Source: Candidatus Wukongarchaeum yapensis
GTDB taxonomy: Archaea > Asgardarchaeota > Wukongarchaeia > Wukongarchaeales > Wukongarchaeaceae
Assembly: GCA_016840425.1 (NCBI GenBank)
Contig: JAEOSI010000008.1
Location: 1-23,414 of the forward strand
DNA: 23,414 bases
Reading direction: 5' to 3'
The translations under genes were made by a program, and so were the position numbers. How positions within the stretch are numbered: position 1 is the stretch's first letter; every line of letters starts with the position of its first letter. Below the pieces are notes generated by a model that made no database searches, was not told the DNA's origin, and saw nothing but the letters and a program-made list of their open reading frames with translations. Below, piece by piece: positions 6,980 through 13,701 of the stretch.

Positions 6980-7123
6980 TGGACCCGGCGGGATTCGAAT
7001 TCGCGAACAAGATGCAAAAACACACCCTGTTACCCGCGGCCTCTGGCTAATCCTGCCAAGGATATAAAGAAAAACATCCCTAGTATGCGAAGCCAGCGCT
7101 CTACCAGGCTGAGCTACGGGCCC
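6980..7123 (-). tRNA. tRNA-Ala(CGC) with introns at 37/38 (7085-7049, 37 nt) and 53/54 (7032-7000, 33 nt)
   Basis: Spliced sequence GGGCCCGTAGCTCAGCCTGGTAGAGCGCTGGCTTCGCAAGCCAGAGGCCGCGGGTTCGAATCCCGCCGGGTCCA has a G3:U70 pair and A73. The second intron has a central CGCG/CGCG helix with GG|T and AA|T bulges. Confidence 0.9.
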
Positions 7124-10489: not shown

Positions 10490-10641
10490 GGGCCCGTAGC
10501 TCAGCCTGGTTAGAGCGCGCGACTGATAACCTTTAACCTCTTCATAAGCTGTAATAAAAGAGGTTAGAAATCGCGACGCACTAATGTTTTAAGATTTTTG
10601 CGCGGTAAAGGTCGAGGGTTCAAATCCCTTCGGGCCCACCA
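10490..10641 (+). tRNA. tRNA-Ile(GAT) with introns at 37/38 (10529-10569, 41 nt) and 43/44 (10576-10608, 33 nt); CCA encoded
   Basis: Spliced sequence GGGCCCGTAGCTCAGCCTGGTTAGAGCGCGCGACTGATAATCGCGAGGTCGAGGGTTCAAATCCCTTCGGGCCCACCA. BHB central helices are CTGA/TTAG and ATCG/CGGT. Confidence 0.92.
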
Positions 10642-11045: not shown

Positions 11046-11202
11046 TTTTACTTCTCCACTTTAATAGGCACTGTTTCTAGTTATTTTTAAAAATTAAACA
11101 GTCTGAAGACTAACGTTTGCCTTTTCTTTAAAAATCACATGTTTTGACAGATGATTATAAAATAATGATTTTAAGATTCGATGAAAAAAGTATAAAAAAA
11201 TA

Positions 11203-11237
11203 TATATGCATTTTTTATTTCCAATCTAATGCATATA
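11203..11237. promoter_or_regulatory. Perfect 10-bp inverted repeat upstream of the RHH gene
   Basis: TATATGCATT-N15-AATGCATATA; each arm contains palindromic ATGCAT. Confidence 0.4.
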
Positions 11238-11304
11238 ACATATATAATATAAATTCATAAAAAGACAAAGAGCAAAAAAAGCATAATAGGAGAAGTGAAA
11301 AATC

Positions 11305-11526
11305 GTGAGCCAAAAAGAAAGAACATCATCCTCATCAGGAAGAAGGAGAAGAAGAAAGGAAGAAAAACAACACATAACAATCTCTCTACCAGAATCAATA
11401 GCAAACAAGTTCCGTGAAAAAGCCTACGCACTATTTGGTCTAGGAAAAGGCTCCCTAAGCGAGGCAGCAGAAGAAGCCATAACAGACTGGCTAGAAAAAG
11501 TAGAAAAAGAAGAAGCAGGGAGATGA
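11305..11526 (+). CDS. Ribbon-helix-helix (CopG-like) DNA-binding protein
   Basis: Beta strand HITISLP, helix ESIANKFREKAY, then GKGSLSEAAEEAITDWL. GTG start follows AGGAG. Confidence 0.7.
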   Translation: MSQKERTSSSSGRRRRRKEEKQHITISLPESIANKFREKAYALFGLGKGSLSEAAEEAITDWLEKVEKEEAGR

Positions 11527-11654
11527 GGTCTTCTTTTTTACTAAGGATTTATTTATTTTTTTCATGAATTTAGAATTTCACTTTCGCTTTTTTTAGTTTT
11601 TCTTTTTTTATTCGTTTGAAAGCCTAATATATTCACTTTTGCCCCCCTCTCTAT

Positions 11655-11666
11655 AAAGTTTATATA
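11655..11666 (+). promoter_or_regulatory. BRE/TATA-like promoter of the tnpB-like gene
   Basis: AAAGTTTATATA about 45 nt upstream of ATG 11712. Confidence 0.5.
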
Positions 11667-11711
11667 TGGTATATATTATATGAATGATCTATCCTTCATG
11701 GGGTAAAAATT

Positions 11712-13535
11712 ATGCGAAGAACAGTAACAGAAAGCGTGCGTTTAACCTTTCAAGGCAAACTTTTAGAGGTAGCAGAAGAAGACCGTGTTAAGATCGATGA
11801 TCTTATGAGAAGGCTTCAATCTGCGAAAAGAACCGCTTTCAAAAGACTTCTAGAAGTCACAAGTAGTGAAAAGGAGATACGAAAGGAGCTTTCTGAGAAA
11901 TTTATCCTAAACTCAAAGTATGTAGATTCTGCGATAATTGATGCAAAAGCGATAATAGATAGTCAAAGAGAACTATTACCTTACTACATTGAAAACTATG
12001 AGGGAAAGATAAGAAAGAGTAAGAAAAAGCTGCAAAAGTGTCGTTCTGAACTGAAACGCAAAGGCATACAAGCCAGAATAAAAAAGTATGAGGAGAAAAG
12101 GGATCTTTTAAAACAGCACTTAGAGAATGGAGCCACCCCCAGGGTAGTCTTTGGAAGAAGGGGTAACTTTGACCTTCTTATAAAGGGGAAGATACTGGGG
12201 GAAGAATGGAGAGATTTGAGGACAAACCAAGTTTATAACAAGGGTGAAGCTTACCAAAAAGGTAACAGAAACTTGAGAGTAACCTATGAAGAAAAGGAAA
12301 AACAGTTCTACCTATTGATAAATTATCCTAGCAAAGTAAAGGGAAAACGGGGACGAAAAAAGAAGTATAAGCTTTTTGTTCCAGAACCTTTCAAACCATA
12401 CATCCTATCTAACCTAGAGACTGAGAAAATAACGGTCGGAAAACAGAAAAAGACTAGGATTGTTAACAAAAAACCCCACACAGTTAGAGTGATACGCAAT
12501 AAAGGAGAATATTATGTTAACATAACGGTAGAATTGTCTTGTCCGGATGAAACTTTTTCAAATGCTAACAAAAAAGGTTTAATGGGCCTAGATGTTAATG
12601 TTAAGGGCATAGGAGTAGCAATAGTTTTTCCGAACGGTAATCTTAGAGTGCATCGATGGTTTCCATGCCACGAACTTTTTTACACAAGAAGCGAAAAACG
12701 TTCTCACTTGATAGGAAACCTACTGGTTAAGGTTTTCAGGTGGGCTAAAAAGTTCGGCGTGAACACTGTTGTTTCAGAGGGTTTAGATAGGTTCAAAAAG
12801 GATAACGACACCAACGCGAAATACAATCGTGCCACTCACAACTTTTGCAAAGAGAAGATGATTAAAACCATTAAAAGCAGAGCCTTAAAAGAGAACTTTG
12901 TTCACATAGAAGTTTTTCCAGCCTACAGTTCAATAATCGGAGCCATAAAATACCAAAAAATGTACGGTTTAAACACTCATGAAGCTGCCGCCTTCGTAAT
13001 CGGGAGAAGGGGATTAGGATTTAATAACGAAAAGATTCCAAAAGAGCTTTCCAAGAGCTTAAAGCTAAAGGGGCGTCGCCAATGGAAGGATGACGCTGAT
13101 CCTTTGGCGAGCATCTGCCGCCAGTGGGGCGGTCTATGGAAACAAGTTTCGAAAATAAAAAACCTCTTCTTCGAAACAACGAGGGAGATACCTATGAACC
13201 TTCGCTGGTTCTGTAGGCATCTCCTAATTAAATCTGGTGGCGCTAACAGCGCGCTTCAGCTCGCGCTCTCCTACTTAAATAAAAAGGAAGAGATGGAAGT
13301 AGAGGAAACCGGACTGTCTTCGGGGTTCAGATCCTACCTCGCCGACTTAACCCGTTCGGTCCTTGAAAACGCTGAAGAACTACGTGAGAGTCGTAGCACT
13401 AGGCGCAAACAGGCGTTATGCGCCGTCGTTGACTTTATAAATAATGGGGGACTATCCTCCTTCGAAGGTCAACGATATGAAGAAAAACATCCTCAAAGGA
13501 TCGAAACCTCTAAAATAGCCTGTAGAGGCTTCTGA
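11712..13535 (+). CDS. tnpB: TnpB/Cas12f-like RuvC protein (IS200/IS605 OrfB-related), zinc-finger-less, atypical RuvC-III
   Basis: RuvC-I MGLDVN, RuvC-II VVSEGL, VFPAYSSIIG followed by NTHEAAAFVIGRRGLG. Also VVFG and KG..YQKGNRNLRV motifs of this OrfB-related family. No tnpA in the window. Confidence 0.85.
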   Translation: MRRTVTESVRLTFQGKLLEVAEEDRVKIDDLMRRLQSAKRTAFKRLLEVTSSEKEIRKELSEKFILNSKYVDSAIIDAKAIIDSQRELLPYYIENYEGKIRKSKKKLQKCRSELKRKGIQARIKKYEEKRDLLKQHLENGATPRVVFGRRGNFDLLIKGKILGEEWRDLRTNQVYNKGEAYQKGNRNLRVTYEEKEKQFYLLINYPSKVKGKRGRKKKYKLFVPEPFKPYILSNLETEKITVGKQKKTRIVNKKPHTVRVIRNKGEYYVNITVELSCPDETFSNANKKGLMGLDVNVKGIGVAIVFPNGNLRVHRWFPCHELFYTRSEKRSHLIGNLLVKVFRWAKKFGVNTVVSEGLDRFKKDNDTNAKYNRATHNFCKEKMIKTIKSRALKENFVHIEVFPAYSSIIGAIKYQKMYGLNTHEAAAFVIGRRGLGFNNEKIPKELSKSLKLKGRRQWKDDADPLASICRQWGGLWKQVSKIKNLFFETTREIPMNLRWFCRHLLIKSGGANSALQLALSYLNKKEEMEVEETGLSSGFRSYLADLTRSVLENAEELRESRSTRRKQALCAVVDFINNGGLSSFEGQRYEEKHPQRIETSKIACRGF

Positions 13536-13549
13536 GGGCGTTTTGCAGC
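13184..13549 (+). ncRNA. Candidate omegaRNA-like structured RNA overlapping the tnpB 3' end
   Basis: Hairpins at 13184-13224, 13248-13267, 13380-13396, 13402-13424, 13426-13475 (11-bp stem with inner 6-bp stem), 13489-13501 and 13507-13528. The region is visibly GC-richer than the rest of the ORF. Boundaries are approximate. Confidence 0.5.
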
Positions 13550-13701
13550 GCCGGGGTAGCTTAGTTGGTAGAGCGTCTGGCTGTTATCATCTGTTTTGGT
13601 TCGTTTATCTCCGTAAAAGATGGTTGAAACCAGACGGTCGGAGGTTCGAGAATAGCGTAGTTTTTAGGGCTACGTTGGCGGAAATCCTCTCCCCGGCGCC
13701 A
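13550..13701 (+). tRNA. tRNA-Asn(GTT) with introns at 37/38 (13587-13628, 42 nt) and 59/60 (13651-13684, 34 nt); CCA encoded
   Basis: Spliced sequence GCCGGGGTAGCTTAGTTGGTAGAGCGTCTGGCTGTTAACCAGACGGTCGGAGGTTCGAGTCCTCTCCCCGGCGCCA has G73. The T-loop intron central helix is TTCG/CGGA. Confidence 0.9.

Follow-up and report, generated by a model that had tools for sequence, protein, structure and literature searches.

The TnpB-like gene and the tRNA gene behind it

The window analysed here is a stretch of 23,414 nucleotides (nt) from the Asgard archaeon Candidatus Wukongarchaeum yapensis (GenBank assembly GCA_016840425.1, contig JAEOSI010000008.1, positions 1 to 23,414 of the forward strand). It contains a gene for a TnpB-like protein whose 3' part overlaps a structured module resembling the omegaRNAs of TnpB systems, and this module abuts a tRNA-Asn gene. 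Comparison of the locus with its copies indicates that gene and module form an element that has settled in the front end of at least 11 different tRNA genes of one Asgard genus. The parts of the locus are:

11581 to 11682, forward strand: left (upstream) module, T-rich, with a TTTATATA box at 11659-11666, about 46 nt before the ATG
11712 to 13052, forward strand: folded, protein-constrained part of the TnpB-like gene (amino acids 1-447), with WED/REC/RuvC architecture
13053 to 13535, forward strand: open 'C-terminal extension' over the RNA module (amino acids 448-607), with a predicted local distance difference test score (pLDDT) below 50 and no codon-position signal
13062 to 13549, forward strand: omegaRNA-like module and right end of the element, about 480 nt, overlapping codons 451-607
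13355 to 13544, forward strand: the repeated 'unit', the last 190 nt of the module, whose copies were found by blastn and nhmmer
13550 to 13701, forward strand: complete tRNA-Asn(GTT) gene with two introns, found by ARAGORN after intron removal, with an encoded CCA at 13699-13701

Re-reading of the window verified the 607-amino acid open reading frame (ORF) at 11712-13535 on the forward strand, together with the motifs that a first-pass annotation, made from the sequence alone, had taken as marks of the protein's end (RRGLG at amino acids 432-436 and WGGLW at 473-477). In hidden Markov model searches the match to TIGR01765 is weak (38.3 bits against a cut-off of 47.25; E 1e-9), and NF040570 (guided_TnpB) scores 24.4 bits against an NCBIfam cut-off of 100 (E 1.6e-5). 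The 607-residue protein has no significant match in a local copy of Pfam-A and none to PF07282, and a PDB sequence search returned chance matches only; its precomputed Pfam family is PF27229 (SSO2105_N). The nearest homologues, at 74-78% identity and 591-620 amino acids, come from metagenome-assembled genomes of Hodarchaeota and other Asgard archaea, and 522-residue proteins of about 40% identity, named 'TnpB-related', are present in Neobacillus and Methanosarcinales. The family occurs in 29 of 301 sampled Asgard genomes.

A Foldseek search against PDB returned Cas12f, Cas12k and Cas12g as top matches (probability 1.0, E about 1e-9 to 1e-7), and the AlphaFold model has pLDDT values of 70-95 up to residue 447 and below 50 for residues 448-607. 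An alignment of 17 homologues shows the RuvC residues D294 (RuvC-I), E356 (RuvC-II) and H423 (RuvC-III) to be invariant. The RuvC-III motif reads H423-E-A-A-A-F-V-I-G-R-R-G (H-E-x-A-A-F-V-I-G-R-R-G across the homologues), with His423 in place of the Asp of the D-x-N-A-A motif. The C4 zinc ribbon (TNB domain) is absent, and a cysteine-free linker of 14 residues leads from P-A-Y-S-S to H423. The ORF thus encodes a protein of the TnpB/Cas12 fold with a D-E-H RuvC site and no zinc ribbon. By these features the protein fits the published clade RIIIr-4, a major TnpB clade in which the RuvC-III Asp is replaced by His and the C4 zinc finger is lost, and which was called probably catalytically active (PMC10691335). 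Both of these defining features are present here, and the match is one of features. The word 'tRNA' is absent from the main text of the paper that describes the clade, which gives no RNA structure for it (Altae-Tran et al. 2023, PMC10691335), and we found no functional study of SSO2105 or RIIIr-4 in the literature.

Behind the gene, the sequence from 13550 (GCCGGGGTAGC…) starts 14 nt after the ORF's stop codon (TGA, 13533-13535) and has a closing acceptor stem (GCCGGGG/CCCCGGC). ARAGORN and Rfam failed to call this tRNA-Asn on the raw window because of its two introns, one of 42 nt at 13587-13628 in the canonical position 37/38 and one of about 32 nt in the T-loop, within 13647-13681 (borders ±~3 nt). 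ARAGORN on the spliced sequence bears out the tRNA-Asn and the 14-nt gap that the first-pass annotation had recognised. All three tRNAs noted in the window (6980-7123 on the reverse strand, 10490-10638 and 13550-13701 on the forward strand) have two introns each, with non-canonical positions (variable region or T-loop) among them, and for this reason ARAGORN and Rfam overlook many of the tRNAs that the genome encodes. An orthologous tRNA-Asn gene exists in the sister species.

The ORF tail is a nucleic-acid module

Comparisons were made within this genome (G000, a 2.16-Mb assembly in 277 contigs) and with a sister species of the same genus (G001). Relative to the paralogous copies on contigs C189 and C89, amino acids 1-450 show an excess of third-codon-position differences and are under purifying selection; such selection acts on full-length genes in both species, on at least two in G000 and on two or three in G001. 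In the comparison with C189 and C89 the differences at codon positions 1, 2 and 3 number 5/4/23 for amino acids 401-450, and from nt 13062 on they become even (5/3/4, 8/8/7 and 7/6/10). The same evenness is seen across copies in the last 190 nt, where the mean pairwise differences are 0.163, 0.170 and 0.171 at the three positions. The boundary of the codon signal, at about 13062, coincides with the collapse of pLDDT at residue 448, and the GC content rises from about 0.37 to about 0.50 across 13050-13700. A 1-nt indel near 13483 puts the C-terminus of the window copy in a frame unlike that of all other copies, and the 522-residue, 40%-identical homologues lack most of the C-terminal extension.

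The codon-position signal is lost from 13062 on, and the tail of the ORF is therefore constrained as RNA (or single-stranded DNA). By this substitution pattern, it is a nucleic-acid-constrained, omegaRNA-like module of about 480 nt; the C-terminal extension is probably made by translational read-through and is not a conserved folded domain. The structured RNA within the ORF that the first-pass annotation had proposed is thus real and beyond chance, although its constraint begins about 120 nt further upstream than the position 13184 given there.

Copies of the unit lie in front of tRNA genes

Searches with blastn and an nhmmer profile found exactly ten copies of the unit in G000: two are full-length (C110 and C189), two are partial (C89 and C137) and six are gene-less, among them a copy on C77 that joins left-end sequence directly to right-end sequence. 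In nine of the ten, the terminal sequence GGGCGTTTT and a spacer of 5-8 nt are followed by a tRNA gene whose acceptor stem closes, each time another one, including those for Asn-GTT, Leu-GAG, Cys-GCA and several class II types; the exception is again C77, where a degenerate tRNA-like 5' piece follows. Blast searches of G001 gave six unit matches: five have a tRNA 5-8 nt downstream, and the sixth is a 38-nt fragment at a contig end. These tRNAs are orthologous to those of G000, with the addition of a tRNA-Phe that starts GCCGAGG. In all, the two species have 16 unit copies, of which 15 precede tRNA genes with a shared 5' sequence, and a third assembly has the same arrangement.

The tRNAs concerned are of one kind in their first bases. 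All unit-linked tRNAs of G000 begin GC[C/G]GGGG and, with those of G001, GC[C/G]G[G/A]GG. The right flank of the unit always begins GC[C/G]G[G/A]GGT and varies among copies only as far as the host tRNAs differ. Such a start occurs in none of 22 other Rfam-detected tRNAs, and a genome-wide pattern scan of G000 found no such tRNA start without a unit or a unit remnant. A case of the latter is seen at C70:4090 (reverse strand). The tRNA there agrees with the C268 tRNA over its first 24 nt, the unit is reduced to its last 11 nt (gtttttgagcg), and a TATA-like box (tattaaag) lies about 25 nt upstream; either the unit has been lost almost entirely at this locus, or gene conversion has left a short tract of it. 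Downstream of the tRNA-Phe of G001 (L011:5040-5200) there is, in addition, a GC-rich and apparently structured stretch of about 150 nt, with no Rfam match at the gathering threshold.

Among 41 related genomes the unit is confined to this genus. Only one of about 20 distant Asgard homologues of the gene has a same-strand tRNA downstream, and the Neobacillus homologue has none. The idea that homologous genes might generally sit before tRNAs accordingly holds within the genus and fails beyond it, so that tRNA linkage is not a trait of the whole family but a speciality of this lineage. The sole tRNA-linked distant homologue (L035, on G252:C156) is 37% identical, and its tRNA (GGGTTCG…) begins about 217 nt past the ORF stop; its three closest relatives have no tRNA, and the linkage may be due to chance or be an independent case.

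The element sits inside tRNA genes

In C189 the sequence GCGGGGGTGGCCGA, 2,053 nt upstream of the unit, equals nt 1-14 of the tRNA (14 of 14 positions) and defines an element of 2,234 bp. The tRNA-Phe copy of G001 has the left repeat GCCGAGGTAGCT (12/12) and the G001 copy on C121 has GCGAGGGTAGCC, with one mismatch; in the C3, C77, C268 and C259 copies the left repeats are 9-12 nt long with 0-2 mismatches. Seven copies thus carry, at the left boundary, a repeat of tRNA nt 1-12/14 (10-14 nt). These repeats start exactly at G1 and track the bases specific to each tRNA (A5 of Phe, TGAC, TAAC, TGGCCGA). Behind them comes T-rich DNA in which a TTGGGGTGGGTTTCCGC…GCGGAAACC motif is conserved; the left end also has an imperfect hairpin. 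The left repeats point to a layout in which the native promoter and tRNA nt 1-12/14 come first, the element next and the complete tRNA last. As judged from these junctions, the element has an internal position in the tRNA gene, with a complete tRNA behind its right end.

With 10 + 6 copies in the two species, subterminal hairpins at both ends and asymmetric ends, the element has defined boundaries. The first-pass annotation had seen no end of an insertion sequence; the ends now recognised are the left module at about 11581-11682, the right end reaching to about 13549, and the repeats of 10-14 nt in the sibling copies. Its report that neither tnpA nor a CRISPR array is present is confirmed for the element. 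The genome does contain one intact Y1 TnpA gene, at C70:7637-7990, which lies 3.5 kb from the C70:4090 tRNA.

In the window copy itself the distal left end is absent, and the segment 11100-13417 is specific to G000 relative to G001. The expected place of the distal left end and the tRNA fragment is occupied by 11100-11560, which has a GC content of 0.16-0.30 at 11100-11300 and continues as an A-rich segment with small ORFs at 11226-11408 (reverse strand) and 11305-11526 (forward strand). The orthologous locus of G001 lacks this sequence and has about 400 nt of unrelated sequence instead.

A conserved structure joins the module to the tRNA

The structure of the unit was tested on an alignment of its 15 copies (A2). 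The elements of this structure are:

13380 to 13396, forward strand: hairpin H1, CTACG-TGAGAGT-CGTAG, 98.7% paired in the 15 copies
13402 to 13424, forward strand: hairpin H2, GGCGCA / TGCGCC, with double changes in three of six stem pairs and 95% of cells paired
13425 to 13476, forward strand: long hairpin H3, GTCGTTGACTTT / AAGGTCAACGAT, 93% paired, with one A-U/U-A swap
13507 to 13528, forward strand: subterminal right-end hairpin H4, CCTCTA / TAGAGG, 87% paired, with double changes in two pairs
13536 to 13549, forward strand: element terminus GGGCGTTTT (13536-13544) and 5-nt spacer GCAGC (13545-13549), from the 15-copy alignment
13547 to 13552, forward strand: 3' strand of the pseudoknot helix, AGCGCC, made up of the last three spacer bases and tRNA G1-C2-C3

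Taken together, the four hairpins and one long-range helix have 94.2% of cells paired, compared with 35-47% when the partners are slid. Compensatory double changes affect 13 pairs, compared with 5.3±1.6 in column shuffles, none of 500 of which reached 13; the covariation expected of the stems in the first-pass annotation is therefore present. Upstream of the unit, at 13062-13355, pairing is 96% in eight copies with little variation, and double changes occur in 5 of 81 pairs. Several G-U pairs are conserved across copies, one of them invariant, which favours RNA over single-stranded DNA as the form in which the module is constrained.

Of particular interest is the long-range helix. The loop of H2 contains the 6-mer GGCGTT (13412-13417), which pairs with 13547-13552; this helix of 6 bp has double changes in five of its six pairs and 97.8% of cells paired. 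In an alignment-free test every one of the 15 copies had a loop-tail helix of 5-7 bp (14 of them one of 6 or 7 bp), formed by eight different complementary sequence pairs, and the mean score was 5.8 for a copy's own loop and tail as compared with 4.2 across copies. In eleven copies the helix spans positions -4 to +2, counted from G1. Combined with the stem of H2, it makes a pseudoknot where scaffold and flank meet, and since both this pseudoknot and the acceptor stem use tRNA nt 1-2, the two are mutually exclusive. A pairing across the tRNA boundary had been proposed before, between GGCG (13537-40) and CGCC (13549-52); it was recovered by no structure prediction, and the covarying partner of 13547-13552 is instead 13412-13417.

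Two candidate promoter elements lie within the structure. The upper part of H3 holds an invariant TTTATAAA at 13434-13441 (TTATAAA is unchanged in the 15 copies), a candidate internal TATA box, and the TAAAATAG-like loop of H4 (~13511-13518), about 30-40 nt before G1, is a second TATA-like candidate. The consensus of the spacer in the family of copies is YSAGCG.

The insertions are old and their tRNA-proximal ends persist

The same tRNAs are occupied in G000 and G001, and in a tree of the units the orthologous pairs of the two species cluster. By this comparison the insertions are shown to predate the split of the two species. The tree is otherwise star-like, with deeper nodes unresolved, which suggests one old burst followed by vertical inheritance; a clustering of units by type of host tRNA was looked for, and the tree is uninformative on this beyond the orthologous pairs. 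Orthologous units are 87-91% identical, compared with about 70% for the adjacent downstream DNA. At the tRNA-Asn of G001 the gene and most of the RNA module are lost and only the last ~135 nt are kept, from 17 nt upstream of TTTATAAA. These comparisons show that the tRNA-proximal 135-190 nt survive preferentially after loss of the gene.

A probable tRNA-resident TnpB element and its possible guide

The first-pass description of a solo TnpB-like gene with a 3' end overlapping a structured RNA that abuts a tRNA is supported by these results. On balance, we think the locus is probably a genus-specific mobile element of about 2.1-2.2 kb with an IS200/IS605-like build, comprising TnpB and an omegaRNA-like RNA and resident in the 5' parts of tRNA genes. 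Its insertion would leave the native promoter and the first 10-14 nt of the tRNA at the left boundary of the element. With the native promoter displaced, the tRNA would have to be transcribed from within or through the element, and the TATA-like boxes at 13434-13441 and/or ~13511-13518 could serve this purpose, giving scaffold and tRNA on one precursor. One old burst probably carried the element into tRNA genes that share their first ~12 nt.

What the RNA would use as a guide is a separate question. The first-pass annotation had proposed a tnpB-omegaRNA-tRNA co-transcript in which RNase P defines a 16-nt guide, GAGGGCGTTTTGCAGC, between stop codon and tRNA. The 14-nt gap and the immediate adjacency are indeed real, co-transcription with the tRNA is plausible, and any pre-tRNA would be expected to be cut by RNase P at G1. 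However, GGGCGTTTT hardly varies among the 15 copies, whichever tRNA comes next, and the 5-8 nt that are left pair with the internal loop and show compensatory changes. A constant, internally paired stretch is a scaffold and not a locus-specific guide, and this model now seems hardly credible. Two alternatives raised at the same time fare better: that the guide reads into the tRNA fits better than a guide of GAGGGCGTTTTGCAGC, and that the element targets tRNA 5' flanks fits the occurrence of 15 of 16 units before like-starting tRNAs. In characterised TnpB systems the guide directly follows the last helix of the scaffold. By analogy with their RNAs, the 5' sequence of the tRNA itself, from about nt 3 on, would act as the guide here. 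Competition of pseudoknot and acceptor stem for tRNA nt 1-2 suggests that one transcript may have two alternative fates: in one it would become a guide-bearing omegaRNA, and in the other RNase P would cut at G1 to yield a mature tRNA and a guide-less scaffold.

Several observations weigh against a mobile, RNA-guided element of this kind. The window copy has no left repeat, and no conserved target-adjacent motif (TAM) was found before the left-hand tRNA fragments. IS200/IS605 elements normally make no target duplication. The element contains no transposase, and Cas1 (PF01867) was not found in the 92%-complete assembly, which also removes casposase-type integration as an origin for the 12-14-bp repeat. 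The sister species yielded no empty site, four metagenomes yielded neither an empty site nor a contig joint that skips the element, and the tRNA-Phe locus of G000 falls in an assembly gap between C92 and C234; with no empty site, mobility is read from copy number and junctions only. The frame stays open over ~157 codons of 'RNA', for which the chance expectation is estimated at ~7e-4, so the tail may also matter as protein. Covariation is unable to tell RNA from single-stranded DNA structure, and a guide taken from the tRNA 5' end would make each occupied locus a target of its own RNA unless it is discriminated.

Among other explanations, it is possible, though we would not favour it, that the 135-190-nt unit has been domesticated as a host promoter and structured 5' leader for ~eleven tRNAs, with TnpB a decaying passenger and no RNA-guided activity today. 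Most copies are gene-less and yet keep the unit in both species, TTTATAAA is invariant and a TATA-like loop lies at -30 to -40, and the native promoter is displaced to the left fragment. The Asn remnant of G001 begins shortly upstream of TTTATAAA, without the pseudoknot loop, and yet persists; the C70:4090 tRNA, before which 11 nt are all that is kept of the unit, has a TATA-like box of its own. A promoter would not, however, need a covarying pseudoknot and 480 nt of conserved structure; a pseudoknot that sequesters tRNA nt 1-2 would be expected to hinder recognition by RNase P; and the purifying selection on full-length genes of both species does not suit a decaying passenger. Such a role for the unit is also partly compatible with a tRNA-resident TnpB element and does not exclude it.

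The form of the conserved structure is the issue in a further proposal, that hairpins and loop-tail helix are right-end recognition structures in single-stranded DNA for a Y1 TnpA supplied in trans. The model is IS608, whose cleavage site is paired with an internal 'guide' tetranucleotide. In an extended form, excision and insertion might use one pentanucleotide, tRNA nt 8-12 (T-R-R-C-Y), at either side. The right end of the element would then include tRNA nt 1-12, insertion would rebuild the tRNA, and excision would restore the native gene. This known enzymology would explain why the repeats start at G1 and why the hosts are limited to tRNAs with compatible first 12 nt, and it agrees with the intact Y1 TnpA at C70:7637-7990, the subterminal hairpins at both ends and the left junctions, which always fall after tRNA nt ~12 at T-[A/G]-[G/A]-[C/G]-[C/T]. 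The helix, however, stops at tRNA nt +2 (at -1 in two copies), short of nt 12, the proposed cleavage site; its strands are ~135 nt apart, unlike the compact arrangement that Barabas et al. are said to have described for IS608 in 2008; the conserved G-U (G-T) pairs suit RNA better; and 480 nt of conserved structure go far beyond a transposase binding site. We consider this proposal improbable. The 12-14-nt repeat itself may be a true target duplication, or it may be element-borne tRNA nt 1-12 left by Y1 action at nt 8-12.

At the other extreme, the tRNA-resident TnpB element might perform RNA-guided, tRNA-gene-specific insertion, with the first ~12-14 tRNA nt as guide, a ribonucleoprotein that finds the tRNA genes with this sequence, two staggered cuts set by the length of the guide-target duplex, the pseudoknot as a switch between guide-bearing omegaRNA and ordinary pre-tRNA, and an array of copies served in trans. 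The direct repeat would then be a target duplication of 'guide length' (G1 to nt 12-14), and the ~ten gene-less copies would be a multi-guide array of tRNA-fused omegaRNAs for two or three intact proteins. This is a long shot; if true, a zinc-finger-less D-E-H TnpB would be part of targeted integration or tRNA gene control, beyond the role of a homing nuclease.

Relation to known systems

Like the TnpB-omegaRNA systems of IS200/IS605 elements (for example ISDra2), the element described here combines a single RuvC-bearing protein of the TnpB/Cas12 fold with a structured RNA that overlaps the 3' end of the gene and reaches the right end of the element. The helix or pseudoknot of the scaffold likewise adjoins the flank, which in ISDra2-type systems is the guide; subterminal hairpins are present at both ends, and gene-less derivatives keep the ends. 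It differs in the RuvC-III His for Asp, the missing zinc-ribbon/TNB insertion, the absence of tnpA, a much longer RNA (~480 nt) and a score far under the guided_TnpB cut-off (24 against 100 bits). Moreover, the right flank is never arbitrary and is always a tRNA 5' end, and the insertions are flanked by a direct repeat of 10-14 nt, unlike those of IS200/IS605, which have no repeats.

Insertion into an essential conserved gene whose function is kept is also known from SSV- and pNOB8-type integrative elements and from IStrons. Elements that target tRNA genes carry a replacement copy of part of the tRNA. In the SSV- and pNOB8-type elements the integrases are tyrosine or serine integrases and it is the 3' part of the tRNA that is replaced, whereas here the 5' part is rebuilt and no integrase is present. 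IStrons keep the host gene by splicing themselves out (PMC4227781), and the element described here, unlike them, has no ribozyme. The closest likeness in layout is the tRNA-Thr(GGU) locus of Caldiarchaeum subterraneum, in which a tRNA 5' fragment, a multi-copy element of ~1.9 kb and a complete, intron-bearing tRNA follow one another (Sugahara et al. 2012, PMC3293823). The order of 5' fragment, repeated element and complete tRNA is thus shared, but in Caldiarchaeum the fragment comprises nt 1-27, the element brings a new intron, its 271-residue ORF is of unclear family and not shown to be a TnpB, no RNA module is described, and one tRNA species is concerned, as against ~eleven here. TldRs, which are domesticated TnpBs, resemble the present case in being TnpB relatives with a fixed neighbour and an adjacent guide-like RNA, and the role here could be regulatory and not selfish; they have, however, lost their catalytic residues and are single-copy host genes (PMC10705468), whereas here D, E and H are invariant, the copies are many and have recognisable ends, and the neighbours are tRNA genes.

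What is new, then, is a TnpB/omegaRNA element of the RIIIr-4 type that appears specialised for tRNA 5' ends, and of which the anatomy is well supported, while the RNA fates and the use of a guide are what we infer. TnpB elements are usually viewed as transposon passengers guided by whatever adjoins their right end; the present lineage is always found in one class of essential gene. The host gene would be kept working, as the tRNA is rebuilt behind the element and the scaffold is fused, physically and by base pairing, to the first bases of the tRNA. The element thereby links RIIIr-4 nucleases with the origin of disrupted and intron-rich archaeal tRNA genes and with the targeting of tRNA genes by mobile elements, which is otherwise known from integrases and eukaryotic retrotransposons. 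Genome engineers have built scaffold-tRNA fusions that are processed by RNase P for the expression of guide RNAs, and a natural fusion of this kind with a competing pseudoknot would be a useful model. In addition, both species have gene-less units whose pseudoknots are maintained, which suggests that these have a function persisting after loss of the protein gene in cis.

The left module and related loci in other genomes

The left module is probably the promoter region of the gene, to judge from its archaeal TATA-like box. It is 92-95% identical to the left parts of the C189 and C77 copies and, to the same degree, to the regions upstream of a different, canonical tnpB gene, with the N-terminus MKIGYQVISYKFRLYPTKEQ, on five contigs of G000. 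What might be taken for 'solo left ends' at these places are thus the upstream regions of that gene. The matches, to window positions 11590-11682 (~95 nt), are:

C109, 85-175: upstream region of canonical tnpB
C180, 4835-4926: upstream region of canonical tnpB
C19, 1012-1115: upstream region of canonical tnpB
C34, 9135-9229: upstream region of canonical tnpB
C208, both ends: upstream region of canonical tnpB

The identity of the module is far above that between the two tnpB genes themselves, which suggests an exchange of promoters or left ends between two families of TnpB elements.

Ordinary relatives of the element exist in a closed Asgard genome (G013), where three copies of ~1.75 kb with 87-88% identity lie at about 1640900, 1927000 and 2666200 of C1 (L061-L063). 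Their proteins belong to the same clade, and a sharp right end (…GCAGAAAACCAACCCT) is followed by unrelated flanks. Pairing of loop and tail is possible there with the last six bases of the element, without support from covariation. These copies would serve well as a reference for the RNA and the target motif of the clade. A structured 3' flank also follows the 522-residue homologue of Neobacillus (L012:4570-4760). Rfam found no tRNA in this flank; it includes a tRNA T-arm-like GGGTTCAATTCCC and a hairpin, GACG-TGAGAAT-CGTC, with a TGAGAAT loop of the H1 type. Hairpins with this loop may be a clade-wide omegaRNA motif.

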